A DNA stretch of 64,000 nucleotides from an uncultured bacterium (GCA_903824595.1 CAIJXH010000007.1:5184-69183); one strand, 5' to 3'. Shown: positions 4,702 to 55,243, numbered from the stretch's first letter. Notes: generated from the letters alone by a model not told the origin. Numbers and translations are program-made.

Positions 4702-4703
4702 GG

Positions 4704-4905: not shown

Positions 4906-4923
4906 CGAGTTTCGAGTCGCGGA

Positions 4924-4951: not shown

Positions 4952-4967
4952 CGGCGCGTGTGGTACC

Positions 4968-6149: not shown

Positions 6150-6153
6150 TCCC

Positions 6154-27022: not shown

Positions 27023-27063
27023 CGTAAGTCACAGAAAACCCGTCATTCAGGGCGTGACTTACG
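27023..27063. promoter_or_regulatory. Perfect 10 bp inverted repeat (CGTAAGTCAC...GTGACTTACG) with a 21 nt spacer in the divergent intergenic region of the element
   Basis: It lies between divergently transcribed genes 25924..26778(-) and 27103..27720(+); a candidate operator or origin. Confidence 0.3.
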
Positions 27064-27102
27064 TTATAGGGGGAAACTCCTATATGACCGCAAGGTCTCC
27101 TG

Positions 27103-40936: not shown

Positions 40937-41869
40937 ATGGAGCACTTTGGTATGCATGTAGTACGACGAGACGACCCGCGCTACATGGAAGCAGTGGTCA
41001 AAAAGAAGTCACAAGAAGATCCGCGAGAGATTGTGATCCGCGAAAAAACTGCCGCGCAGATGCTCAAGGAGGAGTGGGCGCGCGATGCGTTTGCGAGAAT
41101 TAGAGACATTCAGATCGAGTACCTAAAAGACGCCGTGGCACACGCGGATGACCAGGAACACGTGCACGCGCGCACACAAAACACGGTTCGTGAATTGTCG
41201 TCATTGCTACGCTCGAGTATCGTGAGCGGTTCTGAATTTCTCAAAGAAATACCGCGAGGCTCTCCTGTTCTTGTTGCCACCAATCATCTCGGCGCATACA
41301 AGCTCGTCGGAATAAAACCAAAAGAAGACATTGGTGTCGATATTCCCGGCTATGACGCCATGTACCCGTATCTCATGTATTTTTCGGCACTCGCACCTGT
41401 GGCTGATGCGCTTGGCGATACGATATACTACGTATCTGAAGATTTTCCCGGTGTATTCGGTGATGTTCACTCGGCGGCAGGTTTTGTACATGTTCCGCCT
41501 GCGTCTATTCCCATCGAAGGCGGTCGTACGGCGGTGCTCACTGAACAAACAAGAGCGACCATAATCAGGCACAAAAATGCCGCGATTGTGAATTTTCCAG
41601 AAGGTGGTACGAGTGGAAAATATACCGATCTTGATATTTATGATCTCGATCCATTCAAAACGGGCGGCTATGTAGTTGCTTCCGAACTCGGTATTCGTAT
41701 TGTACCTGTCGCGCAATACTTCGACAAAGATAAAGGAATGCAATTGTGTGTGTTCGATCCGGTTGTCCCTCCACAAGGAGCTTCAAAAGACGTGTACGAG
41801 CATCTTGCAAAAAACGATCAGGAGAAAATGCAGGCGTGGCTCGATGTGTGTCGCAATCGGATGAAATAA
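40937..41869 (+). CDS. Lysophospholipid acyltransferase (PlsC-like) superfamily protein with a degenerate HX4D motif
   Basis: Block I LVATNHLGAYK (His present, Asp replaced) and block III FPEGGTSGK. Confidence 0.5.
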   Translation: MEHFGMHVVRRDDPRYMEAVVKKKSQEDPREIVIREKTAAQMLKEEWARDAFARIRDIQIEYLKDAVAHADDQEHVHARTQNTVRELSSLLRSSIVSGSEFLKEIPRGSPVLVATNHLGAYKLVGIKPKEDIGVDIPGYDAMYPYLMYFSALAPVADALGDTIYYVSEDFPGVFGDVHSAAGFVHVPPASIPIEGGRTAVLTEQTRATIIRHKNAAIVNFPEGGTSGKYTDLDIYDLDPFKTGGYVVASELGIRIVPVAQYFDKDKGMQLCVFDPVVPPQGASKDVYEHLAKNDQEKMQAWLDVCRNRMK

Positions 41870-41905
41870 AATCAATCATGCCTGTTCCTGTGGTCAAGGC
41901 GACGT

Positions 41906-44900
41906 GTGTCTGGTACTATTTTTACATATCATAATCCTCTAATCTTACCTATGCCCACGCCCCCACGCACTTTTCCAGTAACACAAACATACACCACCTC
42001 AACATGCGCGCTTGTAGCACTTTCCGTACTTTTTGGTGCATGGTATGCACACGCAGATACGATATCAGTGAATACCGACGACCGTGTTGCCACATCATCT
42101 GTACCAGCACTCGTGTCAGATGCAACCTCCACACCCGACACGGTCGCCACGTCCACCGATCCATCATCCGACGACGCGAGCACTACCGACGACGTATCTT
42201 CCGATGAAGAAGATGTAGCACTCGACCTCGGCGACGATCATACCGAGCTCGATGCCGCCAAAGACATGACCGGCGTCGTGCGCCAGAGCAAGCCATACAC
42301 CTGCGGACCAGCCTCGCTTGCCACCTTGCGCACACAAATGGGAGAGACCACGAGCGAGGAAGACGTGTTGCGCTACTTCACGGGCGACAACCTCACCGAA
42401 GACCGCGGCACCAACCTCCTTGCGCTCAAAAACGCCGCGCAGGAGCTCGGCAGCACCGTCTACCTCAAGAAACTCTCCGCCGAGCAGGTGCTCACGTACA
42501 TCCAAGACACCGGTGATCCCGTGCTCATTCACGACGAAAAGCCGGGAGTCGGCGGACACTTTTCCGTCATACGCTCATACGATGCCGACAGCGCGATGGT
42601 GGAACTTTCCGACACGGAAGCGGGCAACATCAAGTACTCGGTGGAGAGTTTCAAACACATCTACACAGGCGACACGCTCATCATTTCCGACGACACGAGC
42701 AACGATCTCCTCAACGCCACCTCCACCGATCTTTCCAACGACTATGCTGCGGAGGTGTGGGGCAAGTATGTGCCGGTGGCTGTGGCTGCCAACGGAAAGA
42801 GCGCGGCTGCCACGGCGGCGGTTACCGCATTCAACATCTGCATCACCAACGCGATGAAGACCGTCAACTACACCCAGCGCAACAATGCTCGTGCCGTCTG
42901 CTATACCACGCTCGGTACCGACCTGAAAGGCACGTCGTCCACCGATCCGCTCTCCAATTTCCAGGAGCTCCAGGTCGCCGCAACCGTCGAGGGGACGATG
43001 CTTCTCGGCAACCTCGACAAAACCAATGAAACCGCCATCGGCACGTCCGACCTTCTCGCCGCACTCCGCTCCGTCCTCGCCGCCCAACAGACATACATCT
43101 CCGTATTCCCCACACTCACCAGCTACCTCTCGCAAGCCAGTGCAACACTCGCCACGCTTGCAAGCACGATCACGACACTCCAAAACCAAATCACTCCGCT
43201 TCAGTCCAAGCTCTCACAAGCACAGACCGACAAGGGAATACTCGATATCGCTATCACACAAAAACAATCCGCCATCACTCCGCTGCAGAACGAAGTCAAC
43301 GGCGGTACCTTCGTCCAAAACGGCACCACCTTCTCGCTCGGCGCAGTCGGCAGTCAGCTCTCCGCACAGTCCACAACCCTGAAAACACTCTCGGCAAATC
43401 TCGCCAGCAAACTCTCTTCGCTCGACGGTCAAATAGCCAACAAGCGAAGCTCGATCAATTCATACACCAGTAGCCGTACCTATTGGCAAAATCAAATCAA
43501 CATATACCAATCCGATGTAAACAACTGGCAATCTCAATACAACAACGCCGTCGCCTCCGTGAGCTACTTCTGGAATCAGTACCAGGCAGACATCAGAGCG
43601 CGCCGCAGTACCTCATACGACTACACCAACTACGCCGCATGGCTCACCAAGCAAAACACCTACTCCTCCTACCTCAACACCGCCCGCTCCAACCTCTCCT
43701 CGGCACAAAACAATTACAGCTACTACAATTCTCAAATCAACCAGCTCACGAGCGACATCGCTTCGCTCCAGGCACAGAAAGATTCTGCCAATAGCGCCGT
43801 CTCCGCCGCTTCCGCCGAAGCCGCTCGCCTCCAACGACTCAAGGACTTTGGCGATCAGGAAATGAATCGCAAGAAAGGTCTGCTCGCAACACTCCAGAGC
43901 GAGCTCGCCAATCTCCAAAATCAGCTTTCTGCCAAAGTCGCTTCCATCACCAGCTACACCGCCCAGCTCACGCCACTCAAAGCAAAGCTCGCCACACTCC
44001 AATCCGCCCAATCCCTCGCCACCCAGATCACCGCGCAGACACAGATCATTGATGGTGTGAAGGCGAAGTATGGCTTCACAACATTGACGTACACAAATCA
44101 AGACGAAACAAATCGTCTCATCACCGAGGAGCTGACGAATGAGAAGGGGTGGGATCGTTCAGTGGAAGTCGGCGCTACCGCCAGTATCCAACAAGCAGCG
44201 GTGACCACTGCTCCAACAGGCGTGTGGCTCGTGGGTGCGATATCGGGCGTCGTGCAAGGATTGTATTCTGTCGCCGAAGGATTCGAGACACTCGTATTCT
44301 CTCCACTCACTACTGCTCAAAACATCGGAAGTGCCGTATCTAACTACGACAAAACCGCAACTGCCATCTACGATGGTCTCAAAGGTCGCGCCGTTGCCAT
44401 TGTATATGTCGACAACACCAACTTCTTCAGTATCTACAATGCGGGCGTAGCTGTTGGATCGACTGCGTTTGATGTATGTACGGTCGCTTGTACACTCGGT
44501 GGAGGCATTGCGGTCAAGGGTGTACAAGTATCGAAAACCGCGATAAATGTCTCCGGCACAGCTGATCGTACGGCGGAGATCACCAAAGTCGCGCAAACAC
44601 TCCGCGCCACACTGGCAGCAAAGATCACTACCATGGTTGCTGATCTGAAATCAGCATCGTCAATTTCCGCTCTGCTCACCAAGGTAGACGCTTACAATAT
44701 CCCCAATGTCGGCGTGGGCTCAACGAAAGTACTTCTCGGGAGTGCGAGTGATGCGAGGGTGGTGTTTGATGCAATGACGAAAGGGTGGAAAATTGAGAAA
44801 GATGTGGTCGCATCGGATGGATCTGCTATTTATGTGCGAACATCCACAGACGGCAAATACTCCCTTGATTACCGAACGAAGTCCACATCTTCAATCTCAG

Positions 44901-45001
44901 ATCCGACCTTAACGCATCAGGCGACGATTGATGTGGTGCCAAGAGATGCTGCTGGCAAACCAATCAGTGGCGCACAGGTTGAGATTAAATTTGCACAATA
45001 A
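41906..45001 (+). CDS. Giant (1031 aa) secreted or surface protein: an N-terminal C39-like peptidase domain, a ~450 aa Gln/Asn/Ser-rich coiled coil, and a C-terminal globular domain
   Basis: A TM/signal at aa ~30-50, an acidic T/S/D linker, then KPYTCGPASLATL...GVGGHFSVIRSYD (Cys/His of a C39 papain-like fold), and heptad-rich sequence from aa ~370-760. Confidence 0.7.
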   Translation: MSGTIFTYHNPLILPMPTPPRTFPVTQTYTTSTCALVALSVLFGAWYAHADTISVNTDDRVATSSVPALVSDATSTPDTVATSTDPSSDDASTTDDVSSDEEDVALDLGDDHTELDAAKDMTGVVRQSKPYTCGPASLATLRTQMGETTSEEDVLRYFTGDNLTEDRGTNLLALKNAAQELGSTVYLKKLSAEQVLTYIQDTGDPVLIHDEKPGVGGHFSVIRSYDADSAMVELSDTEAGNIKYSVESFKHIYTGDTLIISDDTSNDLLNATSTDLSNDYAAEVWGKYVPVAVAANGKSAAATAAVTAFNICITNAMKTVNYTQRNNARAVCYTTLGTDLKGTSSTDPLSNFQELQVAATVEGTMLLGNLDKTNETAIGTSDLLAALRSVLAAQQTYISVFPTLTSYLSQASATLATLASTITTLQNQITPLQSKLSQAQTDKGILDIAITQKQSAITPLQNEVNGGTFVQNGTTFSLGAVGSQLSAQSTTLKTLSANLASKLSSLDGQIANKRSSINSYTSSRTYWQNQINIYQSDVNNWQSQYNNAVASVSYFWNQYQADIRARRSTSYDYTNYAAWLTKQNTYSSYLNTARSNLSSAQNNYSYYNSQINQLTSDIASLQAQKDSANSAVSAASAEAARLQRLKDFGDQEMNRKKGLLATLQSELANLQNQLSAKVASITSYTAQLTPLKAKLATLQSAQSLATQITAQTQIIDGVKAKYGFTTLTYTNQDETNRLITEELTNEKGWDRSVEVGATASIQQAAVTTAPTGVWLVGAISGVVQGLYSVAEGFETLVFSPLTTAQNIGSAVSNYDKTATAIYDGLKGRAVAIVYVDNTNFFSIYNAGVAVGSTAFDVCTVACTLGGGIAVKGVQVSKTAINVSGTADRTAEITKVAQTLRATLAAKITTMVADLKSASSISALLTKVDAYNIPNVGVGSTKVLLGSASDARVVFDAMTKGWKIEKDVVASDGSAIYVRTSTDGKYSLDYRTKSTSSISDPTLTHQATIDVVPRDAAGKPISGAQVEIKFAQ

Positions 45002-45008
45002 ATTAAGT

Positions 45009-45461
45009 ATGAAACCATCGTATTCCATTGAAAATGAAGTGCTTGAGGAGGTACTCACATACATTAAGAATAATCCGGACCACTCCTCGTTGGCGTATGT
45101 CATTGGCATTCTTGGCTATACTTCTGAACAAAAAAAGAAATACGGACTGCGGGAATATCCGCAGCCAGAATACACAACCACAGAATTAGAAGAGATTAGA
45201 AGCTTGGCATCAGTCGAGGTTAAAGAGCGGACTCTCTCCTACCTCAAAAAGCTTTTGAAGGATGGGCAGATAAAAGTAAGACTGATACATATTGACACAA
45301 AAGAAATGACTGACTTCAATACGTCCGATGATGCGGAAAGAATGGTCGGGACGCTTCGCAAGATGTGGAGTGAATGCCCACAGGAAGATCTCACAAGTTT
45401 TGAACTATCTCAATACATCACGCTCTTCGGAAACCCATGGCCCATTTATAAAAACCATTAA
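45009..45461 (+). CDS. Hypothetical protein (150 aa)
   Basis: A complete ORF with its ATG 8 nt after the giant gene's stop; no recognisable domain. Confidence 0.45.
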   Translation: MKPSYSIENEVLEEVLTYIKNNPDHSSLAYVIGILGYTSEQKKKYGLREYPQPEYTTTELEEIRSLASVEVKERTLSYLKKLLKDGQIKVRLIHIDTKEMTDFNTSDDAERMVGTLRKMWSECPQEDLTSFELSQYITLFGNPWPIYKNH

Positions 45462-45475
45462 GATAAATAAAAACT

Positions 45476-46213
45476 ATGAAAATAAAATATACGACATTGG
45501 CGATAATCGGATTTATGGTCGTTTGTGCATTTTGTTTTGCAGCATACATGAATATAGTATTTCGCGCTTCTCATGTGCAAGATCGAGATGCAGAACCAAT
45601 TCTTGACGCGACTTTTCCGCCCACTGCTGGTCGTGTACCCACGCATCAATCAGATGATATATCGCTATTAGAATACTTGCGTCGAGAAATCTACGAGGCG
45701 TCGCCTCCGAAATATACTCACATCAAGCTGGATCCTAGTGTTGAAAGCGCGACATGGTACTCACTCTCATATATTCCATACAACATCTCCATTGACCTGC
45801 CTTTCCCGGAACTTGATATAGCGACTGGTTATCCCAGAGACGGTCATACAATGAAGCTACCTGACGCAAATAGTATTGAGGTTTTCACTCTCGATTTCAA
45901 GCAAGCTTTTATCGACAGTGATAACATGAAAAATATCGTGACACATCTATGTGATCGGATATTAAAACAAGCAACAAGTGATCCTGTGTCACCCCTTGTG
46001 ATCACTTCATCAAAATCCGGCGTGAATAGAAACGGTATTGGATATGTGATCATTGATGCAAAAGGCTCACCTGCTTCTTCGCTCAGTGCTGTAACTTTAG
46101 TCACACTGCTTGCTCCAGAAGCGGTGGTAACGATGACCGTGGCCAATATTCCCAATCAATCAAGCGTTGTTGAATCGATCGTGTCATCGGCACATAGCCC
46201 AACGAAACCGTAA
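45476..46213 (+). CDS. Hypothetical membrane-anchored protein (245 aa)
   Basis: A single N-terminal TM (LAIIGFMVVCAFCFAAYMNIVF), then a soluble domain. Confidence 0.45.
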   Translation: MKIKYTTLAIIGFMVVCAFCFAAYMNIVFRASHVQDRDAEPILDATFPPTAGRVPTHQSDDISLLEYLRREIYEASPPKYTHIKLDPSVESATWYSLSYIPYNISIDLPFPELDIATGYPRDGHTMKLPDANSIEVFTLDFKQAFIDSDNMKNIVTHLCDRILKQATSDPVSPLVITSSKSGVNRNGIGYVIIDAKGSPASSLSAVTLVTLLAPEAVVTMTVANIPNQSSVVESIVSSAHSPTKP

Positions 46214-46321
46214 GGTATCCGAGACAGCTGTCCACGCAGTCTCCTTACGTTCCTGTTTCCTCATGCACACTTTTCGACAGAGTGATATTCACAGGCTCCG
46301 TCGAGGTGGTAGAATTTCAGC

Positions 46322-47167
46322 ATGAGTCCAGCTCTGTGTAATTTTGGAGAGTCTCAATATCTATTGTTCGGACCAAACGTGGCACCTCTTGTGTATTATT
46401 CGCATATCCCCATAATGTTGGCGTCTTTGATGTTGGCGCTGCTTATTATCAGGCAGAACATGAATGGTCTGGCAAACCGTGTACTATTTTTCACCGTCAT
46501 AGTTTTTGCCACGTGGTTGTTTCTCGATTCTGTGTATTGGGCAAGCAACAGAAGTGACGTTGCTATGTTTATGTGGTCGGTTACTATCTTGATCGAACCA
46601 CTCGTGTACATAGGAAGCCTATATTTTCTCTATGTCCTCATTGATAAACAGGATGTGGCATTTCGTATCAAGCTGAAATGGTTCTTACTATGGGTACCAT
46701 TAGCCGTGATTGCTCCTACTCAATATCTTTTGTCAGGCGTTGAGGTGTCGTCTTGTTTAGTAAAAGAAAATTCGCTGTCATTTTATTCATATTTTATTGA
46801 GGTAGTGTGCATCATGTGGATAACAGCTCTCGCGTGCCAACGCTATCGTGCATCGACAATAAAAGAACAGAAGGACAAAATAATATTTTTGACCACGGGG
46901 GTGCTCTTGTTATGCTTGGCGTTCACGTGGGGTAATTTGTTCGGCAGTTTTACTGAAAATTGGCAGATCGCTCAATATGGATTATTCGGAATGCCTATTT
47001 TTATCGCATTTCTACTGTACGCAATAGAAAAATATAAAATATTCAATATCCACCTCATTGGATCCTTGCTGTTCCTTATCGTTATGGCATTTTCTATTAC
47101 GGCAACGTACTATCGCGCCATGGTATTGCACGATTACGATATCGTCGACTCAAGATCGCAGCAGTAG
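46322..47167 (+). CDS. Stand-alone membrane sensor domain (7-8 TM), a paralog of the N-terminal half of the histidine kinase at 47685..49328, lacking HisKA/HATPase
   Basis: Collinear similarity to the kinase N-terminus (LFGPNVAPLVYYSHIP vs IFGPNVPALVYYAHLP; YSYFIEVV; GLFGMPIFIAFLLYAIEKYKIFNI vs GLFGMPVFIAFLAYTIVKYRTFNI), but ending before the kinase core. Confidence 0.65.
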   Translation: MSPALCNFGESQYLLFGPNVAPLVYYSHIPIMLASLMLALLIIRQNMNGLANRVLFFTVIVFATWLFLDSVYWASNRSDVAMFMWSVTILIEPLVYIGSLYFLYVLIDKQDVAFRIKLKWFLLWVPLAVIAPTQYLLSGVEVSSCLVKENSLSFYSYFIEVVCIMWITALACQRYRASTIKEQKDKIIFLTTGVLLLCLAFTWGNLFGSFTENWQIAQYGLFGMPIFIAFLLYAIEKYKIFNIHLIGSLLFLIVMAFSITATYYRAMVLHDYDIVDSRSQQ

Positions 47168-47188
47168 ACTCATTGAGTCTCGCGTCTC

Positions 47189-47587
47189 CTATTCCTTGAT
47201 GTCCTCAAGCGACAGCCCGTTACGTTCGAAATACTTATTATCAAACTGGCGATAATCGCAGAGAAGCTCTTCTCCCGGGAGAATATCGCGCGCCGCGATG
47301 TCTCTCGTTGGCGTTGACTCGATATTCAATCGTTTTTGAGAATGATTGATGTATCGCTGACCATCGGCGCACAGGACGTATTTTTGCAATTGCTTGTCAA
47401 AATAGCAATAGTAGTACATATATGCCCGAGCCACAGGCGGCAGACATTCTATCTTTTCAGAAGGAAACGACACATCGTACTCAGGATCGTATTCCCACGT
47501 AATGGTGCCTTTTGGAATCATCTGATCCGCAAAAAGACCAAATCCGTGAACATCACTATCGCGCACTACCGTTTTTACTTTTATCAT
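47189..47587 (-). CDS. SET-domain protein (putative protein-lysine methyltransferase), 132 aa
   Basis: GFGLFADQMIPKGTITWEY...RYINHS...LPGEELLCDY, matching SET motifs GxG, (R)FINHS and ELxxDY. Confidence 0.72.
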   Translation of the reverse strand: MIKVKTVVRDSDVHGFGLFADQMIPKGTITWEYDPEYDVSFPSEKIECLPPVARAYMYYYCYFDKQLQKYVLCADGQRYINHSQKRLNIESTPTRDIAARDILPGEELLCDYRQFDNKYFERNGLSLEDIKE

Positions 47588-47684
47588 CCGCTGATGATAC
47601 CATAGGAAATACGTTTGTACATTGCGTTGTATGTATAGTGTGTATAACGTGGTACATGCATTGTTCGGATGTTACAATCCGAAA

Positions 47685-49328
47685 ATGGATCCATCAGTGA
47701 CGTTTTGTAGTTTTGAGGGAGCAAAATTCCTCATTTTTGGTCCAAACGTACCTGCTCTTGTCTACTATGCTCACTTACCGAATATCATAATATCTCTGTG
47801 TCTGGCTTTTTTTATTTTATTTCAAAATAGAAAAATGCTAGCAAATCAGGTTTTGTTTGGCACAATACTTTCATTTGTGATCTGGGCGTTCTTTGCTCTC
47901 GTATTCTGGGCAACCAATAACCCAGGTGTCGTGATATTCAGCTGGTCGATGGATGTGTTATTTGAACCATTAGTATACGTAGGATGTTTATATTTGCTCT
48001 ATGTTTTGTTCGAAAAACGCGATCTTCCACTTACGTGGAAAAGCATGTTCACCATACTGTACGTACCCTTCGCGCTTCTTGTACCAACGCGACTCACCCT
48101 TTCAGGTGTAGATTTGTCAACGTGTCTTGCGGTCGAGGGTCCTGTTGCACTGTATTACTCCTATTTCATAGAAATCGTGATATCGATCTGGGCGTTCGTG
48201 TATGCGACTGGGCGGATTTTATATACAGCAAACCCAGAAACTAAAAAGGAGCGCCTCTTTCTATCTATGGGCGTTTTGTTCCTACTTTTCTCGTTTGGGT
48301 GGGGTAATATTATTGGCAGTTTTACAGAGGACTGGAAACTGGGTCTGTATGGCCTTTTTGGCATGCCTGTGTTTATTGCGTTTCTTGCCTACACAATCGT
48401 AAAATATCGAACGTTTAATATTCGTGTGGTTGGATCGGTGGCACTGGTTTTGGCGCTCTGCGCCCTCAATTTCTCGTTGCTGTTCGTGCAGCATGTCGAG
48501 GTATTCCGTGGTGTTGCGGCACTTACGTTTACTATTTCGAGCGTGTTCGGGTATCTGCTCATCAGGAATGTGCGCAATGCCATGCGTCAGCGTGCTTTGA
48601 TCGAGCAACAAGAACGCGCTCTTGAAGTTACCAACAATGAGCAGGAGGCGCTACTTCGTTTTGTGAGTCATGAAATAAAAGGATATCTCACCAAAAGTGA
48701 GGCGGTGTTTGCTGAAATTGGTGAAGGGACGTATGGCGAGCCGACGCCTCGTATCAAACAGATGGCGGAGGGAGCACTTGCCGAGATGCGCAAAGGCGTG
48801 GATATGGTCATGTATATTCTCAAGGCAGCTAATTTCAAGAAGGGTACGGTGGGATACGAAAAACATCCTTTTGACTTGAAGGCAGTCGTGCGCGCCTCTA
48901 TTGTCGCGCTTCAGCCATTGGCAGACGAACGACACATTACCGTTACGTCGTCCGTGAGCGATGAAGAGTTCACTATGACAGGCGATGAGTCGAAAATAAG
49001 CGAGCACGTCACACGCAATTTGATAGACAATGCTCTTCGGTACACTCTTGCGGGAGGGAAGGTGCACGTATCACTTTCACATTGTGTAAATGGCGACGTA
49101 TGTTTTGCGGTCACAGATACGGGGATTGGTATCACCAAAGAAGATATGCGCAACTTATTCACTGAAGGTGGACATGGCAAAGATTCTATTACCACCAACG
49201 TGCACTCGACTGGTTATGGACTTTTCATCGCGAAACAAGTCGTTGGCGCGCACAACGGAAGGGTATGGGCAGAATCGGATGGGGAGGGAAAGGGGTCGAA
49301 GTTTGTCGTCGAGTTTCCGCGGGAGTGA
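47685..49328 (+). CDS. Sensor histidine kinase (multi-TM sensor + HisKA + HATPase_c)
   Basis: H-box FVSHEIKGYL; N, G1 and G2 boxes (DNALRYT, VTDTGIGI, GYGLFIAKQVVGAHNGRVW). No response regulator is adjacent. Confidence 0.85.
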   Translation: MDPSVTFCSFEGAKFLIFGPNVPALVYYAHLPNIIISLCLAFFILFQNRKMLANQVLFGTILSFVIWAFFALVFWATNNPGVVIFSWSMDVLFEPLVYVGCLYLLYVLFEKRDLPLTWKSMFTILYVPFALLVPTRLTLSGVDLSTCLAVEGPVALYYSYFIEIVISIWAFVYATGRILYTANPETKKERLFLSMGVLFLLFSFGWGNIIGSFTEDWKLGLYGLFGMPVFIAFLAYTIVKYRTFNIRVVGSVALVLALCALNFSLLFVQHVEVFRGVAALTFTISSVFGYLLIRNVRNAMRQRALIEQQERALEVTNNEQEALLRFVSHEIKGYLTKSEAVFAEIGEGTYGEPTPRIKQMAEGALAEMRKGVDMVMYILKAANFKKGTVGYEKHPFDLKAVVRASIVALQPLADERHITVTSSVSDEEFTMTGDESKISEHVTRNLIDNALRYTLAGGKVHVSLSHCVNGDVCFAVTDTGIGITKEDMRNLFTEGGHGKDSITTNVHSTGYGLFIAKQVVGAHNGRVWAESDGEGKGSKFVVEFPRE

Positions 49329-49605
49329 GCAATATGCAGTTCCTATGATGAACAAAAAAGACTGGGATTTTGATTCCGTTGAGTGTTGGAGGAGACTCAT
49401 CTTGCGCAATTTGAAAGATGTGGAATCATTCTATGTATGAAGCGCGCAGAATCGTATGACTTTGCAGCACGGATTGTGATCTCGCTGATTGCAATTGGTT
49501 TGGTAGGAGGTGCGGTTGTGTGGGCGGTGTCGCCTGTATCGTCTATGACGATTGCAATGCCATGGTCGGCATCGCACGCCGATACGGTGCAACCCTAACG
49601 TACGT

Positions 49606-50055
49606 ATGAAATCTACCGTCTCATTTGCAGAATTGAAGAGAAAGCGCACACCGCTTCGCAACATCAACATTGAGCATCGTGAACGTCTCACGCGCGTGGA
49701 GCTATTTGCGGTGTGGATCACGGAGCACGTGGGCACCATGGGTTTTTTCGCTCTTATTTTATTGTGGACTCTTGCATGGCTAAGCTGGAATATCTTTGCT
49801 CCAAGATCGTTACAGTTCGATCCGTTCCCTGCTTTTGTGTTTTGGTTGTTCATTTCCAATATGATCCAGATTCTCCTCATGCCACTCATCATGGTAGGAC
49901 AAAATTTACAAGGAAAACATTCAGAGGCGCGAGCTGAGGCTGATTTTGAAGTAAACAAACAAGCAGAACAGGAAATCGAAATGATTATCACTCATCTCGA
50001 AAACCAGGAAGAGCTCCTGCATCGTCTTCTTGCGCGCATTGAAAATGACCGATGA
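49606..50055 (+). CDS. DUF1003-family membrane protein
   Basis: MKSTVSFAELKRKRTPLRNINIEHRERLTRVELFAVWITEHVGTMGFFALI..., the pattern typical of DUF1003; two TM helices. Confidence 0.55.
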   Translation: MKSTVSFAELKRKRTPLRNINIEHRERLTRVELFAVWITEHVGTMGFFALILLWTLAWLSWNIFAPRSLQFDPFPAFVFWLFISNMIQILLMPLIMVGQNLQGKHSEARAEADFEVNKQAEQEIEMIITHLENQEELLHRLLARIENDR

Positions 50056-50605
50056 CGAGCTCATAGCGCAGTATTTGAACGGTGATACATGCGCGCTCGA
50101 GACGCTCGTCGATCGATATATGGGGCGCGTATACAATCTCACGCTTCATATAACGAACGATCAGTCGGCGGCAGACGATGCGACACAGGAAGCGTTTGTG
50201 CGAGCATGGCGTGCGATACGCGGATATCGTACGGGAATGAGCTTCAAGGCGTGGCTGTTTCGTATCGCGCGTAACGCGGCACTTGATTGGGTGCGCAAAA
50301 AGAAAGACGTGGCATTTTCGGTGCTCGATCATGATACAGATGCGTCATTGCAATTTGTCGACACCATTGTCGATGAACACCCTCTTCCCGATGCGTATGC
50401 CATAACGCAAGAGAGTATTCGCCATACCACGGCACTCCTTGCGCGCCTGCGTCCAGACCATCGTGAGATTGTGGTATTGAGACACACCAGCAATCTCACC
50501 TTTGAAGAGATTGGCGCTCTCGTTCGGCGTCCGTTACATACCGTAAAGAGTCAATATCGTCGCGCGATTGCCGCGCTTCGTGAATGTGTGCACCAAAACC
50601 AGTAA
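50045..50605 (+). CDS. RNA polymerase sigma-70 factor, ECF subfamily
   Basis: Region 2 (AQYLNGDTCALETLVDRY...DATQEAFVRAWR) and region 4 (EIVVLRHTSNLTFEEIGALVRRPLHTVKSQYRRA). Confidence 0.85.
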   Translation: MTDDELIAQYLNGDTCALETLVDRYMGRVYNLTLHITNDQSAADDATQEAFVRAWRAIRGYRTGMSFKAWLFRIARNAALDWVRKKKDVAFSVLDHDTDASLQFVDTIVDEHPLPDAYAITQESIRHTTALLARLRPDHREIVVLRHTSNLTFEEIGALVRRPLHTVKSQYRRAIAALRECVHQNQ

Positions 50606-50623
50606 CGAGCTCGTATAGGTAGT

Positions 50624-51019
50624 ATGCACATGCCGATGATCAATCCGCCCGCATATGTACGGAGACGCGTCATTTCACGCATCGCGCGCATGGAATATCG
50701 ACGGTCGGCGGTCCGTTTTTCCGTACTGCTTACCGCGTGTTCTGTATCGACGAGTGTGACCGCTGTTGCTATAGTGTCGGTCTCGCAAGAACTCGCGCGC
50801 TCTGGTTTTTACTCGTATCTTGCACTGCTTGGTTCTGATTCAAATGTTATACTTGCCTCGTGGCACGATTTCGCACTATCTCTGATTGAAGCACTTCCTG
50901 TTGCAAACATAGCGTTTGCACTCGCCGCGGCGACAGCATTGTTCTTTTCGTTACCGCATCTTGTACGCGCTATGCGTGAATTACGCAGATCGCGCGAGTA
51001 TCATGTAGTACTGTCATAG
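50624..51019 (+). CDS. Putative anti-sigma factor / membrane protein downstream of the ECF sigma
   Basis: 131 aa, two or three TM segments; anti-sigma function assigned by position only. Confidence 0.35.
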   Translation: MHMPMINPPAYVRRRVISRIARMEYRRSAVRFSVLLTACSVSTSVTAVAIVSVSQELARSGFYSYLALLGSDSNVILASWHDFALSLIEALPVANIAFALAAATALFFSLPHLVRAMRELRRSREYHVVLS

Positions 51020-51030
51020 CAAAGTATTGT

Positions 51031-51528
51031 ATGCAATCATCAATACCAGCGTTATTTGAATCCAAAATGTTTCGAATGATATCGATTGGTATCGCGCTAC
51101 TGCTTGTCGCGGTATGTATATTCCGAGCAGGTATGAGTATTGGATATAGAAAAGCAGCTTTTACATACCAGCAAGGCGATAATTACTATCGTGCGTTTGG
51201 CAGACACGTTCCGCGCCCGTACGGGATACCTATGCATGATGAATTCATGGATACGCATGGTGCTGTGGGGAAAATAATCAGTGTTGATGCGGCGTCTATC
51301 GTCGTATCCAGTCCTGATGGTATCGAAAGAGTAATCAGTATGTCCACGACCACGCGCATAAAATATCTCGACGATACCGTCCCTGCGACGAGTCTTCATG
51401 TAGATGATTTTGTCGTAATATTTGGCGTTCCAGACAAATCATCGCGCGTGGACGCAAAACTCATCCGTATCTTACCCCCTCCGCCCGAGACATCCACCAC
51501 AAGCACGTCTCATCGTTCATCGCTATGA
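51031..51528 (+). CDS. Hypothetical membrane-anchored periplasmic protein
   Basis: An N-terminal TM and a soluble domain; distantly similar in architecture to 55285..55707. Confidence 0.45.
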   Translation: MQSSIPALFESKMFRMISIGIALLLVAVCIFRAGMSIGYRKAAFTYQQGDNYYRAFGRHVPRPYGIPMHDEFMDTHGAVGKIISVDAASIVVSSPDGIERVISMSTTTRIKYLDDTVPATSLHVDDFVVIFGVPDKSSRVDAKLIRILPPPPETSTTSTSHRSSL

Positions 51529-53300
51529 TGTCTCTTTTCTCGCGCGCTTCGTATAGTTCGGTGATTGCGACAATCAAAGCACATCGGTTGTTGGGTGCTG
51601 GCATTGTGGTGGTGTGCGTGATCGCGAGCTACTGGTTCTACGGCACGTATCTGTCTGCAAGCGCAACAACCACGTATGTACTGGGCACGGTTGAAAAGGG
51701 AACTATCGTCGCGTCGGTGTCGGCGAGCGGTCAGGTGTCGGCCTCCAATCAGCTCGATATCAAGCCGCGCGTGTCGGGCGAGCTTCTTTCTGTGTTGGTT
51801 GTCGCGGGTCAAAAAGTATCGGCAGGACAATTGATTGCGGTTATCGATCCATCCAGCGCGCAAAAAACAGTACGCGACGCAGAGGTCAATGTGCAGAGCG
51901 CGCAGCTGTCTCTCGACAAAATTCAACAGCCAGCCGATGCTCTTTCTCTTATTCAAGCACAAGATGCGCTTGCGCAAGCGTCGACCACGTTGGCAAAAGC
52001 ATACGACGACGGATTCAATGACGTATCGAATGCATTCTTGTCGCTTCCTGGTGACATGGATGGACTCAAAAATATTCTGTATGGATATGATGCAACGCCA
52101 TCAAAATCACAGAGCAATATCTCGGCGTACGCGGATATGGTCGATTCGAGCGATCCTGCCGTCATCGCCTTCAAACAGGACGCGGCAACGAAATATCAAA
52201 GCGCACTCGATGCCTACAACGCAGCTTTTCTCGCGTATCGCGCACTATCTCGTGCTTCTGATGTTGCAGCTATAGAGCACAGCATCTCGCAGACGTATGA
52301 CACGATCAAGCGCATTGCCGACGCAACCAAAAGCGCCAACGATTTTTTGGGACTGGTAAAAGGTAAATTGACCGACAAAAATCAACCCATCCCCACCACA
52401 TTGACGACACACATGTCTGCGCTCGGTACGTACATTTCCGACACGGGTTCGCATCTCGACGAGCTTCTAAATATCAAAAACACTATCACATCGTCGGAAT
52501 ATTCTATTGCGGAAAGAACACAGTCACTTTCCGATCTCCATGCGGGCGCAACTCCACTCGATATTCAATCGGCAAAACTCACGCTTCAACAACGACAAAA
52601 CGCGCTCGCAGATGCACAAAGCGCGCTGGCGGATTATTACGTACGTGCACCGTTTTCTGGCATTATCGCATCGGTGAATGCAAAAAAATACGATACTGCA
52701 GGATCGGGTTCCGTCATAGCTACACTCATCACCGATCAGCAGATGGCAGAACTTTCACTCAACGAAGTGGATGCCGCAAAAGTGACGGTAGGCAATAAAG
52801 CAACCGTCACGTTTGACGCGATCGACACGTTGACCATGACGGGCAAGGTGGCGGAAATCAACACCATTGGAACAGTATCGCAAGGAGTGGTTTCGTACGC
52901 GGTGCGCATAGGCTTTGATGCACAAGACGCACGTATCAAACCGGGCATGACGGCAAACGCCGCGATTCAAACCGAAGTGCATCAAGATGTGCTCATGGTG
53001 CCCTCGAGCGCTGTCAAGACAAAAAACGACGCAAACTATGTGCTCGTGTTTGATCCTGCGCTCTCGGCAGCAGAGGTGGCTAAAGCAGGTTCAACGGGCA
53101 TCGCCTCGAGTGTCGCGCCAAAACAAGTTCCAGTGCAAACGGGAATCGCGGATGATACAAACATAGAAATTGTCTCTGGGTTGTCCGAAGGACAACAAAT
53201 TATCATCCGATCGACGAGTGCTTCCGCAAAAACAACCACCACCTCGTCGACATCTTCGACGCGCAACGCACTGGGAGGCGGTCCGGGTATTCGTCTTTGA
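51525..53300 (+). CDS. Efflux periplasmic adaptor subunit (HlyD/MacA-like) of the downstream ABC exporter
   Basis: TM anchor; lipoyl half QVSASNQLDIKPRVSGELLSVLVVAGQKVSAGQLIAVID; a long coiled coil; VRAPFSGIIASVNAKKYD; a beta-barrel and MP domain. Confidence 0.75.
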   Translation: MMSLFSRASYSSVIATIKAHRLLGAGIVVVCVIASYWFYGTYLSASATTTYVLGTVEKGTIVASVSASGQVSASNQLDIKPRVSGELLSVLVVAGQKVSAGQLIAVIDPSSAQKTVRDAEVNVQSAQLSLDKIQQPADALSLIQAQDALAQASTTLAKAYDDGFNDVSNAFLSLPGDMDGLKNILYGYDATPSKSQSNISAYADMVDSSDPAVIAFKQDAATKYQSALDAYNAAFLAYRALSRASDVAAIEHSISQTYDTIKRIADATKSANDFLGLVKGKLTDKNQPIPTTLTTHMSALGTYISDTGSHLDELLNIKNTITSSEYSIAERTQSLSDLHAGATPLDIQSAKLTLQQRQNALADAQSALADYYVRAPFSGIIASVNAKKYDTAGSGSVIATLITDQQMAELSLNEVDAAKVTVGNKATVTFDAIDTLTMTGKVAEINTIGTVSQGVVSYAVRIGFDAQDARIKPGMTANAAIQTEVHQDVLMVPSSAVKTKNDANYVLVFDPALSAAEVAKAGSTGIASSVAPKQVPVQTGIADDTNIEIVSGLSEGQQIIIRSTSASAKTTTTSSTSSTRNALGGGPGIRL

Positions 53301-53313
53301 CACACATCATCGC

Positions 53314-54027
53314 ATGATCGAAGTTACTTCTATAGTGAAAACGTACGGATCTGGCGAAGCGGCATTTCAGGCGCTCAATGGAGTTTCTTTTACCATCAAT
53401 GACGGGGAATTTGTCGCCATTATGGGACCGTCTGGATCGGGAAAGTCGACGCTCATGCATATCCTTGGATGTCTCGATACCCCCACGTCGGGATCATATT
53501 TTCTTGATGGCAAAGACGTGTCTACGCGCACCGATGATGAGCTTGCCGATATTCGTCGCTTGCATATAGGATTTGTATTTCAGGCGTTCAATCTCCTTCC
53601 TCGCACGACGGTCTTACGCAATGTCATGTTGCCCCTTGTATATGCAGGTGTAGAAGAAAGTGAGCGCGATAAGCGTTCCAAAAAGGCACTCCTTGCGGCA
53701 GGACTGGCAGAATCTCATTTCGGACACATGAGCAATCAGCTCTCGGGCGGACAAATTCAGCGCGTTGCCATCGCTCGAGCGCTCGTCAACGATCCCACGC
53801 TCATACTTGCTGACGAACCGACAGGTAATCTCGATACAAAAACGGGAGAGGTAGTACTGGGCACGTTTCAACGACTCAATAGGGAACATGGGCGCACTGT
53901 CATACTGATTACTCATGAACAAGATGTCGCCGAGCACGCAGAACGCATCATCACCTTGCGCGATGGAATAATTATCACTGATTCGCGATCGCATACGCGC
54001 CGACAAGCACATCACCATGAAAACTAA
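53314..54027 (+). CDS. ABC transporter ATP-binding protein (MacB/LolD-type)
   Basis: Walker A GPSGSGKSTL, Q-loop, signature LSGGQIQRVAIARAL, Walker B ILADEPTGNLD, H-loop. Confidence 0.9.
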   Translation: MIEVTSIVKTYGSGEAAFQALNGVSFTINDGEFVAIMGPSGSGKSTLMHILGCLDTPTSGSYFLDGKDVSTRTDDELADIRRLHIGFVFQAFNLLPRTTVLRNVMLPLVYAGVEESERDKRSKKALLAAGLAESHFGHMSNQLSGGQIQRVAIARALVNDPTLILADEPTGNLDTKTGEVVLGTFQRLNREHGRTVILITHEQDVAEHAERIITLRDGIIITDSRSHTRRQAHHHEN

Positions 54028-55243
54028 CGATATCATACACGAAACATACACCGCACTATCTGCCAACAAAGTGCGTTCTGGGTTGACGATTCTCGGCATC
54101 GTCATTGGTATAGCATCAGTTATCGCGATGGTATCTATAGGCGCAGGCGCTTCGCAGTCGATCTCGTCATCCATAAAATCACTCGGATCGAATCTCATTC
54201 AAGTGACTCCCGGGGCGCAGCGAACGCAGGGTTTTGGAGCAAGTGGAGGTCGCGGAAATGCAAAAACACTCACCAACGCAGATGCGGCGGCAATAGCATC
54301 ACAGGTCACCAACATAGAAGCTGTCGATTCCGAGGTGTCTGGACGCTATCAAGTGACTGCAAAAGGCACCAACACCAATACGACGGTTATGGGGGTCACC
54401 TCGAAATATCCGCAAATACGCAACGTCGAAATAGCGGAGGGATCGTTCATTACCGATGCACAAAATGATACAGGCGCAAAGGTTGCGGTGCTCGGACCAA
54501 CGGTGCGTGATGATCTTTTTGGAGCTGATGCAGAGGGAATTGTCGGGCAACGTATCAGAATCAGCGGCGCAGAATTCAAAGTGATCGGCATTACGGTTGC
54601 AAAAGGGGGCACGGGATTCCAAAATCAGGATGACATGCTCTTCATACCCGTCACCACATCGCAACGATACCTATCGGGCAATCAGTATCTTTCAACCATC
54701 GCGATACAAGCCTCAAATCAGGACGTCATGACGCACGTGCAAAATGACGTAACGGCTCTGCTGCTGTCGCGACACAACATCTCTGATGCAACGCAAGCGG
54801 ATTTTAGCGTACTCAACCAAAACGACATCCTCTCAACTGCATCGAGCATAACATCGACGCTCACCTACCTGCTTGCCGCGATTGGATGTATTTCGCTTGT
54901 GGTTGGGGGAATTGGCATCATGAACATGATGCTCACCGCGGTCACGGAGCGCACGAGAGAAATAGGACTACGTAAGGCGATAGGAGCAAAGCGCGCGGAT
55001 ATCTCGGCGCAGTTTCTTGCAGAAGCTGTTGCACTCACTTTGGTGGGCGGCGTTATCGGGATTACGCTCGGGTGGGGAATAGCCTATCTCGTCAACATGA
55101 CAGGTGCGGTAAAAACGAGTGTCTCGCTCGCCTCGGTGCTGCTTGCTTTTGGTGTATCAGCATTGACGGGAATCATATTTGGATACTACCCAGCTCGTCG
55201 TGCCGCCTCGCTCAATCCGATCGAGGCGCTGCGATACGAGTAG
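54017..55243 (+). CDS. ABC transporter permease, FtsX/MacB family (4 TM with a large periplasmic domain)
   Basis: An N-terminal TM, about 220 aa of periplasmic domain, and three C-terminal TMs with the FtsX-type block IGIMNMMLTAVTERTREIGLRKAIGA. Confidence 0.85.
   Translation: MKTNDIIHETYTALSANKVRSGLTILGIVIGIASVIAMVSIGAGASQSISSSIKSLGSNLIQVTPGAQRTQGFGASGGRGNAKTLTNADAAAIASQVTNIEAVDSEVSGRYQVTAKGTNTNTTVMGVTSKYPQIRNVEIAEGSFITDAQNDTGAKVAVLGPTVRDDLFGADAEGIVGQRIRISGAEFKVIGITVAKGGTGFQNQDDMLFIPVTTSQRYLSGNQYLSTIAIQASNQDVMTHVQNDVTALLLSRHNISDATQADFSVLNQNDILSTASSITSTLTYLLAAIGCISLVVGGIGIMNMMLTAVTERTREIGLRKAIGAKRADISAQFLAEAVALTLVGGVIGITLGWGIAYLVNMTGAVKTSVSLASVLLAFGVSALTGIIFGYYPARRAASLNPIEALRYE

Follow-up and report, generated by a model that had tools for sequence, protein, structure and literature searches.

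A sensor histidine kinase gene and a small SET-domain methyltransferase gene lying back to back form the core of a module that is conserved across Patescibacteria. The pairing, which holds in about three-quarters of the loci of this kinase family, points to a hitherto undescribed connection of protein methylation with two-component signalling. The window that we analysed is a 64,000-nucleotide stretch of DNA from an uncultured bacterium; relatives are Parcubacteria/Paceibacteria-type MAGs, and the bacterium is a small-genome member of the Patescibacteria/CPR. The SET protein (SET1, 132 aa) is encoded at positions 47189–47587 on the minus strand and the kinase (547 aa) at 47685–49328 on the plus strand, separated by a 97 bp spacer (47588–47684) with predicted back-to-back promoters. 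The mechanical ORF of the kinase begins with a TTG at 47622; as the N-termini of its orthologs line up with the ATG at 47685, the start was placed there. Convergent with SET1 on its other side is a plus-strand ORF of 281 aa (46322–47167) encoding a paralog of the kinase's sensor domain. The first-pass annotation had drawn attention to this three-gene arrangement, and all three ORFs were confirmed in position and strand. Its interpretation held in part: the link between SET and signalling was strengthened, whereas a conserved triad, a recent duplication, a host-directed effector and the rarity of bacterial SET proteins were not. The conserved feature is the divergent kinase–SET pair and not the sandwich.

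Seen from the SET side, an orthologous kinase lay head-to-head with SET1 in 28 of 80 species-representative loci. These 28 loci covered 26 of the 28 CPR-labelled genomes and none from cyanobacteria, Proteobacteria or Bacteroidota. Seen from the kinase side, 61 non-identical metagenome loci contained SET1 in 27 cases and a second SET family, SET2, in 19, with either SET immediately upstream of the kinase in 46 of the 61 and any SAM-dependent methyltransferase (SET, PRMT-like or NNMT-like) present in 54. The loci in which a kinase ortholog adjoined SET numbered 28 from genomes and 27 from metagenomes. SET2 is encoded on the same strand as the kinase and just upstream of it, its stop codon falling 2–11 nt before the kinase start in 10 loci. 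SET1 and SET2 have zero pairwise similarity, yet both pass PF00856, and SET2 has an NHSC...CxCGxxxC arrangement, unlike SET1. A further protein, c4, is PRMT-like, and its PDB matches were exclusively PRMTs. As the unrelated SET1 and SET2 and the PRMT-like c4 take the kinase-side slot, the pattern amounts to enzymes that share one chemistry displacing each other in situ. Flanking genes outside the core varied between loci, while the core was retained. Conservation of the pair argues strongly that SET and the signalling proteins are functionally linked, and it was on these proteins that lysine methylation had been suggested to act.

Conservation of this kind might also reflect co-regulation only, with SET methylating a housekeeping protein (ribosomal, translational or nucleoid) and sharing a bidirectional promoter region with a kinase on which it does not act and which does not act on it. 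Predicted −10-like boxes end about 7 nt upstream of each ATG in the 97 bp spacer, the predicted promoter of SET being TGTACA-16-TATCAT and that of the kinase TGTTACAAT. Equivalent divergent spacers measured about 30–100 bp in most of 42 other loci, and no common operator was seen in the divergent intergenic regions of the 42. Neither SAM riboswitches nor others were found near the locus. Start codons only 30–100 bp apart fit mere co-regulation, as does the roughly 50–60% identity of SET1 across phyla that lack the kinase, which is expected with a universal substrate. Left unexplained are the filling of the slot beside one kinase family by unrelated SET, PRMT-like and NNMT-like enzymes, the close packing of SET2 upstream of the kinase, and the tracking of SET presence by a lysine-containing cytoplasmic loop described below. 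We consider this explanation unlikely.

An HMM check bore out the SET assignment of the 132 aa protein, which scored 43 bits against PF00856 (cutoff 22.4; E 6.6e-11) over profile positions 1–104 of 105. SET1 contains the motifs HGFGLF (GxG), RYINHS (NH) and GEELLCDY with the catalytic Tyr, and residues G17, N81, H82, E106, E107 and Y112 were invariant among 30 homologs. Its profile matched the SET domains of MLL1/KMT2, LegAS4 and SET8, with the catalytic motifs in register with those of MLL1. The post-SET Cys/zinc cluster is absent, the sequence containing neither NHSC nor CxCxxxxC, and the C-terminus is a conserved FDxxYFxRxG segment. Such a cluster occurs in many but not all SET enzymes, and as some active enzymes lack it, its absence is compatible with activity of SET1. 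The SET domain starts at residue 1 of the sequence, in which no hydrophobic leader or signal sequence was found, and Pfam returned no secretion-associated or targeting domain. SET1 is thus essentially a bare SET domain, predicted to be cytoplasmic.

These features bear on the proposal that SET works as an effector inside a host or partner cell, to which it would be delivered and whose chromatin-like proteins it would methylate in the manner of Chlamydia NUE or Legionella RomA/LegAS4. Patescibacteria are often epibionts, which speaks for the proposal in a general way, and the best NCBIfam match of SET1 was the SET region of LegAS4, though at 27 bits against a cutoff of 550. Against it stand the bare domain without signal peptide, secretion or targeting domain, and close orthologs (50–57% identity) in free-living cyanobacteria, Bacteroidota and Proteobacteria that lack this kinase. 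Moreover, the coupling at operon level to inner-membrane proteins and to a kinase facing the cytoplasm is conserved, and secretion genes are not among the conserved members of the cluster. The epibiont effector idea of the first-pass annotation is accordingly very improbable. Its premise, that SET proteins are uncommon in bacteria and found mainly in host-associated ones, no longer holds: 99 relatives of SET1 are spread over many free-living phyla, and SET proteins are not rare in bacteria (PMC3980110). The PADLOC defence-system models gave no match for SET, the paralog, c2 (a membrane protein treated below) or SET2, and only weak generic ATPase-domain matches for the kinase.

The kinase matched PF02518 (HATPase_c) with an E of 2.7e-23 and has the N box DNALRYT at 448, G1 box DTGIGI at 478 and G2 box GYGLF at 510. 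Its H box, SHEIK, contains H329, a His that was 100% conserved in 71 full-length family members; PF00512 was not reported for the window kinase at E≤0.01, though it was for orthologs. AF2 helices and hydropathy gave about nine TM helices with the N-terminus outside, followed by the DHp and ATPase core, and no large extracytoplasmic domain, the AF2 model of the sensor being of low confidence (pLDDT 65). The sensor family comprises 937 cluster representatives. In agreement with the earlier remark that no response regulator is nearby, tblastn with five REC probes, including two patescibacterial ones, found no receiver domain in the 64 kb, a test by tblastn rather than an HMM scan of every ORF. 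Of 108 kinase-family loci, just 5 had a REC domain at a distance of up to about 5 kb, in each case as a stand-alone domain. The kinase is an orphan, and its partner regulator, if any, is therefore encoded elsewhere. No SET–kinase or SET–REC fusion proteins were found; long kinases add a GAF domain only.

Among 106 conserved columns of the full-length kinases, D113 and K119 were the two most SET-specific. D113 was present in 93% of SET-linked and 0% of SET-less kinases and K119 in 93% and 10%, respectively; as the SET-less comparison set is small (10–20 sequences) and phylogenetically clustered, the two residues could be a clade marker. K119 was never replaced by Arg, unlike the other basic residues of the loop. 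Where loci contain tandem copies, the distal ones lose D/K and the SET-adjacent ones keep them, with L119 a partial exception to the D/K pattern. By the positive-inside rule, the TM3–TM4 loop that carries both residues is predicted to be cytoplasmic. This signature adds a little to the case that SET acts on the signalling proteins.

Our best overall reading, which we hold tentatively and with less than even confidence, is that of a methylation-coupled sensor-kinase module. SET1 would be an active cytoplasmic lysine methyltransferase working within the module, and its likeliest target would be the cytoplasmic TM3–TM4 loop (D113...K119) of the kinase. Methylation of this loop would set the signalling state of the kinase, by a logic like that of CheR on chemoreceptors but with lysine chemistry. 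The kinase would then pass its signal to a response regulator whose gene lies elsewhere, perhaps a stand-alone receiver like those beside a few orthologs. A more specific claim, and a doubtful one, is that of a two-component receptor, widespread in Patescibacteria, whose output is set or adapted by lysine/arginine methylation, with a dedicated SET or PRMT-like enzyme methylating the K119 loop of the kinase and, in this genome, also of the paralog. As SET1 orthologs occur in phyla lacking the kinase, the substrate of SET1 may be more universal than the kinase loop.

Other members of the cluster were considered as well. The gene c2 (39076–39687, plus strand) encodes a 203 aa 7TM protein with a predicted PQ-loop/SWEET-like fold, its length confirmed by P0038. 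Homologs of c2 adjoin SET1 in 31 genome loci and are its usual convergent neighbour, the 3' ends overlapping (median −8 nt, n=40). In the window c2 lies 7.5 kb upstream of SET, and because about 7.5 kb of other genes separate the two, the paralog stands in the usual place of c2. Adjoining c2 is a gene for an NNMT/PNMT/TEMT-family SAM-dependent N-methyltransferase (39871–40902, plus strand; PF01234, E 1.9e-33). NNMT is a recurrent alternative member of the cluster, and homologs with 36–42% identity occur in c2-(c3)-NNMT-(c4)-kinase operons (L095, L098, L101, L103). The lineage-specific plus-strand genes between this pair and the paralog (40937–46213) comprise one for an acyltransferase and one for a C39-peptidase/coiled-coil protein of 1031 aa, as seen in Pfam matches, together with ORFs of 177 and 245 aa, and none of them clusters with module neighbours in 160 other loci. 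An AdoMet-decarboxylase homolog (AdoMet_dc) is part of the usual cluster; AdoMet_dc, c4 and REC were searched for in the 64-kb window and none was present. A 282 aa membrane protein in the kinase position of two loci (c43; L016/L028) was rejected as a hidden sensor homolog, with an hhalign probability of 0.1%.

The NNMT family, the AdoMet decarboxylase and the transporter-like 7TM protein fit a small-molecule logic as much as protein methylation. On such a reading, a cationic metabolite or lipid head group with N-methylation would be made or modified by the interchangeable methyltransferases together with the AdoMet-decarboxylase homolog, the PQ-loop-fold protein would move the compound across the membrane, and the multi-pass kinase would sense it, serving either homeostasis or, as in LuxM/LuxN and CqsA/CqsS, as the receptor half of a synthase/receptor pair; the paralog would be a second ligand-binding module. 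NNMT/PNMT/TEMT enzymes, annotated as small-molecule N-methyltransferases, take the place of SET in some clusters, and in the window one adjoins c2; AdoMet_dc occurs in 17 genome loci, and methyltransferases of differing type would yield lineage-specific products. In addition, the sensor resembles membrane-ligand sensors in having no large extracytoplasmic domain, and SET1 without the kinase adjoins c2 in Bacteroidota and, in cyanobacteria, a fatty-acid desaturase together with an SMR (SugE/Gdx-like) exporter. The predicted fold of c2 resembles that of the SWEET and cystinosin transporters: the AF2 model (pLDDT 92, pTM 0.88) has seven helices, and the top Foldseek matches were the KDEL receptor, SWEET and cystinosin (TM 0.55–0.60, probability about 1.0). 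These matches are moderate (E 0.04–0.1, about 0.04 at best); no Foldseek match reached E≤0.001, and no Pfam PQ-loop or MtN3 match was obtained at E≤5. The structural and profile matches of SET1 and c4 were all protein methyltransferases, and to our knowledge all characterised SET-domain and PRMT enzymes methylate proteins. The cluster holds no conserved biosynthetic scaffold enzyme, and D113/K119 lie on the cytoplasmic side, not the ligand side. We judge the small-molecule explanation unlikely.

The paralog was aligned with the kinase from residue 1 to about residue 258, with 120 of 258 positions identical (47%; E 5e-81), in line with the 45–50% estimated by eye for a collinear, kinase-less copy. 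It has eight predicted TM helices, seen as eight hydropathy peaks, and ends after TM8. The DHp and ATPase domains are absent, no Pfam or NCBIfam model matched, and window-wide tblastn found no kinase-core remnants after the paralog or elsewhere, which extends the earlier observation that none lay downstream. Public gene calls start the protein at M37 (245 aa, P0034); as conservation begins at residue 1, the 281 aa form is favoured. Only 21 nt separate its stop from the 3' end of SET, and because two independent assemblies (L087, L088) reproduce this junction with 99.9–100% identity, it is not an assembly artefact.

A local or recent duplication was not borne out by the sensor phylogeny. The paralog and the adjacent kinase were exclusive sisters in 1 of 100 bootstraps, a recent tandem duplication was rejected, and the nearest relatives of the paralog are full-length kinases (P0035/L120, L104). 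Descent from the kinase of an NNMT-type cluster was not supported, with 46–47% identity and no grouping, and a foreign composition was rejected, GC3 being the same as in neighbouring genes. Candidates for further kinase-less copies were dismissed in turn: P0036, from an ordinary SET-c4-kinase cluster, is frameshifted by one base where its contig ends, P0083 is a kinase split in two whose ATPase ORF follows downstream, and other short sensor matches end inside TM helices. As no further genuine kinase-less copy was found among about 1,000 family members examined, the expectation that the triad would be conserved in relatives failed. We conclude that the paralog is an old, diverged, truncated copy peculiar to this genome or lineage.

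It may be a non-functional remnant, the undecayed 5' part of a second kinase gene severed by the c2/SET rearrangement. Its closest relatives are full-length, it is the single genuine kinase-less copy among the roughly 1,000 family members examined, and it ends just past TM8, 21 nt from the SET stop, at the synteny breakpoint. On the other hand, the frame is intact over 281 codons and GC3 equals that of the neighbours. Of the 44 positions with at least 90% conservation across 33 kinase-bearing sensors, the paralog retains 40, D113 and K119 among them, and the four changed positions carry conservative substitutions only; this conservation could, however, date from before the truncation. The best promoter-like site in the region (46288–46315) is directly upstream. 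The lost part left no remnants anywhere in the window, which argues that the truncation was not recent. We regard a remnant as a possibility of less than even likelihood. Within the methylation-coupled module, the paralog would be a sensor copy that lost the last helix and the whole kinase core and kept the ligand-side residues and the D113/K119 loop. It would probably act as a co-sensor or decoy, pairing with the membrane domain of the kinase or competing for ligand or SET.

SET-domain and PRMT enzymes are regarded as eukaryotic regulators of chromatin and proteins, and what is known of them in bacteria concerns chiefly effectors directed at hosts and enzymes that modify nucleoid proteins. 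In the poorly understood Patescibacteria, a sensor-kinase family of about 1,000 clusters is almost always encoded next to a methyltransferase. If the coupling is direct, N-methylation would join the known ways of tuning two-component signalling, SET domains would gain an endogenous bacterial function, and a handle would be available on sensing by ultra-small, host-dependent bacteria. If the K119 reading is true, chemoreceptor methylation would have a counterpart not known before, and a SET domain would for the first time have a signalling role in bacteria. A literature search of incomplete coverage found no mention of SET domains in Patescibacteria or of lysine methylation of a sensor kinase.

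Minimal SET forms have about 130 aa, a size like that of SET1. PBCV-1 vSET, Methanosarcina Go1-SET, Chlamydia NUE/cpnSET and Legionella LegAS4/RomA share PF00856 and the NH and ELxxDY motifs with it, whereas SET1 is without a post-SET zinc cluster, targeting domains or signs of secretion, and what is conserved around it is a sensor kinase with membrane proteins, not chromatin or host-interaction genes. Minimal prokaryotic and viral SET lysine methyltransferases are reviewed in PMC3980110. The kinase sensor appears remotely like HisKA_7TM (PF16927), likewise a polytopic N-terminal sensor with no large periplasmic domain that is fused to DHp and ATPase domains, and for which no ligand is known (PMC5847659). 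One family member scored 28.5 bits against the PF16927 cutoff of 28.6, and weak matches occurred in 2 of 32 aligned members (best E 6.6e-5); the window kinase and the paralog had no match even at E≤5, and the helices here number about nine rather than seven. LuxM–LuxN and CqsA–CqsS are signal synthase/receptor-kinase pairs that use SAM. They too place a multi-pass membrane kinase beside SAM-using enzymes; in contrast, the enzymes here belong to protein-methyltransferase families, with no acyl-homoserine-lactone or CAI-1-type synthase. SpdC with WalK (PMC5854430) provides an example of a kinase-less, non-catalytic polytopic membrane protein encoded near a sensor kinase on which it is presumed to act. 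In the present case, a truncated paralog of the kinase's own sensor, confined to one lineage, would take the accessory role, and the interaction is putative.

A further parallel is the CheR/CheB–MCP–CheA system, and the likeness would be functional only. CheR, CheB, CheW and MCP domains are absent from SET, the kinase, the paralog and c2, the only trace of CheR being a 0.032 match in c4. Here a single polypeptide is both receptor and kinase, and a SET protein (lysine N-methylation) or a PRMT-like one stands in place of the glutamate O-methyltransferase; kinase methylation is a prediction, and no demethylating enzyme was identified. Both systems link a SAM-dependent methyltransferase genetically to a membrane receptor, which in turn controls a histidine kinase. 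Stand-alone receivers adjoin some of the kinase orthologs, and the residue pattern on the receptor side tracks the presence of the methyltransferase.

The three open reading frames were present as the first-pass annotation described: the paralog, a kinase-less 281 aa sensor copy (46322-47167, + strand), a 132 aa SET-domain protein (47189-47587, − strand) and a 547 aa kinase (47685-49328, + strand). Only 21 nt separate the paralog stop from the SET 3′ end, and this junction was found again, at 99.9-100% identity, in two independent assemblies. The paralog had no Pfam or NCBIfam match but, as the annotation had claimed, was collinear with the N-terminus of the kinase (120/258 identities over kinase residues 1-258, E 5e-81) and lacked a kinase core; tblastn with the kinase matched only the two sensor copies and the kinase's own core. 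The SET assignment, for which a search with PF00856 had been proposed, scored 43 bits (cutoff 22.4). The motifs HGFGLF, RYINHS and GEELLCDY were invariant or nearly so among 30 homologs and aligned in register with the SET cores of MLL1, SET8 and LegAS4; profile and motifs thus place the protein in the SET family, and the post-SET cluster is absent. The kinase contains HATPase_c (E 2.7e-23) and intact H (H329), N, G1 and G2 boxes, the catalytic features of a histidine kinase. Five REC probes detected no receiver domain in the 64 kb, in agreement with the earlier statement that no response regulator is nearby. For each of the three genes a −10-like box ends about 7 nt before the ATG (46288-46321, 47588-47684), leaving no space for a Shine-Dalgarno sequence, which suggests leaderless transcripts.

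In two distant genomes an orthologous kinase was head-to-head with SET, and its N-terminal membrane domain was 47% identical to the paralog. In a survey of 80 loci containing the window's SET family (SET1), the kinase was directly upstream of SET on the opposite strand in 28, comprising 26 of the 28 CPR-labelled genomes and two MAGs with vague labels; this kinase was beside SET in none of the surveyed loci from cyanobacteria, Proteobacteria or Bacteroidota. The SET homologs and best loci came from Patescibacteria/CPR MAGs, among them Komeilibacteria, Nomurabacteria, Kaiserbacteria, Taylorbacteria, Zambryskibacteria, Uhrbacteria and the Parcubacteria group. The SET1 family is not rare: species-representative genomes gave 99 relatives, and those in cyanobacteria, Bacteroidota and many Proteobacteria were 35-57% identical. 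This spread over many phyla agrees with the published picture of a wide distribution of SET genes among free-living bacteria (PMC3980110). The suggestion that SET acts on a host was unsupported, and we regard a host-directed effector as very improbable.

The same relationship was examined from the kinase side. A sensor-domain profile matched 937 cluster representatives at E<=1e-3; at E<=1e-30 there were 323, and most of the matches were kinases 540-570 aa long. Searching with the sensor alignment brought up 80 metagenome loci, of which the 61 that were non-identical and extended far enough upstream were counted. SET1 was present in 27/61 and a second family, SET2, in 19/61, so that either SET occurred in 46/61 (75%). 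A PRMT-like protein (c4) was encoded in nine of the 61 and an NNMT/PNMT/TEMT-family methyltransferase in four; overall, 54/61 (89%) contained a SAM-dependent methyltransferase. SET2 (about 167 aa; PF00856 E 8.5e-11 to 4.6e-15) contains NHSC and a CxCGxxxC post-SET motif and has no significant pairwise similarity to SET1. It is co-directional with the kinase gene directly downstream and in ten loci stops 2-11 nt before it (copies include L131:4476-4976 (+), L093:4396-4905, L121:2062-2562, L143:~4300-4800 and about 15 more), and the kinases that it accompanies are more distant relatives within the same family. Among kinases at least 43% identical to that of the window, SET1 accompanied 21/28 and c2, a small membrane protein, 22/28.

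The conserved feature is therefore the kinase-SET pair, recovered from both sides, rather than the sandwich that the first-pass annotation emphasized; its proposed link between SET and signalling proteins gained support. As non-homologous enzymes of the same chemistry fill one slot in two orientations, methyl transfer is argued to belong to the system itself and not to be a coincidence of gene neighbourhood. The high conservation of SET1 across phyla would fit another explanation, in which SET is only co-regulated with the kinase and acts on an unrelated housekeeping substrate; we consider this quite unlikely. A REC was nearby in only 5/108 loci, always as a stand-alone domain, and members of the family, the window kinase included, are thus typically orphans.

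When all neighbouring genes were called crudely and clustered, the canonical order was kinase(−), optional c4(−), SET1(+), c2(−) and c3(−), with outer flanking genes that differ from locus to locus. The protein c3 is an S-adenosylmethionine decarboxylase (AdoMet_dc) homolog (PF02675, E 9.6e-24), and c4 is a class I methyltransferase; in the PDB it has relatives only among protein arginine methyltransferases, with which it aligns through the double-E loop. The c2 protein (about 200 aa) has no family assignment; its AlphaFold model (pLDDT 92, pTM 0.88) has seven helices and resembles the KDEL receptor, SWEET and cystinosin (TM 0.55-0.60, probability ~1, E ~0.04), and on this model c2 has a predicted PQ-loop/SWEET 3+1+3 fold. 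The 3′ ends of SET1 and c2 overlap (median −8 nt, n=40). These loci share a conserved, closely packed module: an orphan kinase with several membrane passes, a methyltransferase that is usually SET, a protein of predicted PQ-loop fold and, in many cases, AdoMet_dc.

The c4 gene lies between the kinase and SET1 and encodes about 322 aa with a double-E-like loop, SENIYTGMFFE (L018:4546-5514(−), L039:6394-7362(−) and 18 further loci, including L013, L019, L020, L046, L048, L052-L054, L098, L101, L103 and L106). Its solved-structure relatives are all eukaryotic (PRMT9/7/3/8/CARM1/1/6, E 5e-9 to 1e-4); to our knowledge bacterial PRMT homologs have scarcely been described. Two CPR genomes with SET1 but no kinase have, at the kinase's position and divergent from SET, a multi-pass protein of 282-295 aa (L016:5077-5925(−), L028:1798-2685(−)) that had no Pfam match and was unrelated to the sensor (hhalign probability 0.1%).

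The SET1-c2 pair reaches beyond Patescibacteria, being adjacent and co-directional in three Bacteroidota genomes, possibly through lateral transfer; there SET1 is followed by c2 and no kinase is present (L031:3554-4571, L036:6001-7013, L042:6001-7013). In seven cyanobacterial loci (L024, L025, L026, L033, L035, L038 and L047, ~4700-6450) a fatty-acid desaturase gene and a SugE/Gdx-like SMR gene (PF00893) always precede SET1, which starts at or overlaps the SMR stop; here too SET1 is paired with a small membrane protein resembling cation transporters. The occurrence of SET1 with c2 or an SMR exporter in phyla lacking the kinase, the transporter-like character of c2 and the presence of the NNMT family would all suit a metabolite or lipid system, in which the kinase would sense a cationic N-methylated compound and the methyltransferases, AdoMet_dc and c2 would handle it. 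We judge this unlikely.

The window has its own version of the module. Its c2 (39076-39687; 38% identical to c2 of locus L012, E 1.7e-40; gene call confirmed by the database relative P0038) is in the expected orientation, 7.5 kb away from SET, and the paralog, convergent with SET, occupies the usual c2 place. Beside c2 is an NNMT/PNMT/TEMT-family methyltransferase gene (39871-40902, + strand; PF01234, E 1.9e-33). This family, unusual in bacteria, is annotated for small-molecule N-methylation, and homologs of the window protein fill the methyltransferase slot of c2-(c3)-NNMT-(c4)-kinase operons in L095, L098, L101 and L103. AdoMet_dc and c4 are absent from the window. Between the NNMT gene and the paralog are genes for an acyltransferase, a 1031 aa protein (41906-45001, + strand) with an N-terminal Peptidase_C39 domain and a long Q/S/T/A-rich coiled coil, and two unassigned ORFs, none of which was near the module in the clustered neighbours of other loci. 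The 1031 aa region (GC 54%, GC3 62%) is above its neighbours in GC, and a second, small C39-like peptidase is encoded 8 kb upstream of it (33539-34171, + strand). Downstream of the kinase (49552-55243, + strand) are genes for DUF1003, an ECF sigma factor (50030-50605), two small membrane proteins, a possible anti-sigma factor among them, and a MacAB-like HlyD/ABC/FtsX exporter; none adjoins the module in other genomes. The window also contains a LOOT RNA, a structured RNA (26984-27098, + strand; RF03000, 74.9 bits), a class A RNase P RNA (166-562, + strand) and four tRNAs.

Hydropathy and an AF2 model gave about nine helices for the kinase and eight for the paralog. Odd loops carry K/R charges of +2, +3, +4 and +3 and even loops at most +1; this distribution predicts that the sensor N-terminus is outside and the kinase core inside, and that the C-terminus of the paralog would be outside. 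D113 and K119, six residues apart in the predicted cytoplasmic TM3-TM4 loop (EKRDLPLTWK; loop peptide ...LFEKRDLPLTWKSM...), were the two most differential of 57 conserved sensor columns (77 SET-linked vs 20 SET-less sequences) and the top two of 106 full-length columns (61 vs 10). In the full-length alignment D113 was present in 93% of SET-linked vs 0% of SET-less sequences and K119 in 93% vs 10%. The K119 position is lysine-specific; at the other basic positions of the loop, K and R replace each other. In L034 and L037 the distal tandem copies have F/E and the SET-adjacent copies D/K, both kinases flanking the c2-SET core keep D/K in L048, L110 and L117, and SET-less L160 has neither residue; L119 fits this pattern only in part. 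The kinase and the paralog of the window both have D/K. D113/K119 is thus a candidate contact or acceptor site, a lead rather than proof since the SET-less set is small and phylogenetically clustered. Our tentative interpretation, somewhat short of an even chance, is that SET is a cytoplasmic lysine methyltransferase whose target belongs to the module, with the kinase's D113/K119 loop the most plausible candidate, and that methylation would tune signalling in a logic akin to that of CheR and chemoreceptors.

Two cysteines are invariant, C8 in the N-terminal tail and C147 next to a predicted beta-hairpin in the TM4-TM5 loop, both of which are external. They are accompanied on the outer side by invariant acidic and aromatic residues, and the paralog retains all of them (residues noted in 47685-48400 were C8, C147, E151, H30, E94-P95, W217 and Y222-P228). 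This arrangement points to a disulfide bond or to a site that binds a ligand or metal.

Neighbour-joining trees of up to 66 sensor domains, with weakly supported deep nodes, grouped the window kinase with orthologs in L020, L021, L045, L091 and L094 (53-56% identity). The paralog (45-47% identical to the kinase) formed a long branch near the second copy of L119 and the SET-linked kinases of L104 and L120 (= P0035). Paralog and kinase were exclusive sisters in 1/100 bootstraps, and the smallest clade with both had a median of 20 members. From these trees the paralog appears to be old, or acquired from a related lineage, and to descend from a full-length kinase; NNMT-type kinases, considered as its source, did not group with it. 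Second sensor-family kinases flank the c2-SET core in L048, L052, L053, L110, L117, L119 and L164, and tandem copies occur in L034, L037 and L160, so sensor duplication is a recurring theme at the locus. Each of the other apparently kinase-less relatives proved to be an artefact or a split gene. Of 44 positions that are at least 90% conserved in 33 sensors attached to a kinase, the paralog keeps 40, a number within the 38-44 kept by the kinases, and its four changes are all conservative. Its GC3 is that of its neighbours, and the region's best promoter-like site is directly upstream. This residue conservation could predate truncation, in which case the paralog could be a remnant that has not yet decayed, a somewhat unlikely outcome in our estimation. 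The paralog is probably functional, as a co-sensor or decoy that would modulate signalling by pairing with the kinase or by competing for ligand or SET.

Any relationship of the sensor to HisKA_7TM, for which no ligand is known (PMC5847659), is remote at best. Defence-system models gave no match, and none of the literature that could be searched dealt with SET domains in Patescibacteria, SET-kinase neighbourhoods or sensor-kinase lysine methylation. CheR and MCP domains are missing, so this is not a chemotaxis system. The parts all come from known families, and the conserved association of this kinase with interchangeable SET, PRMT-like and NNMT-like partners appears to be undescribed.
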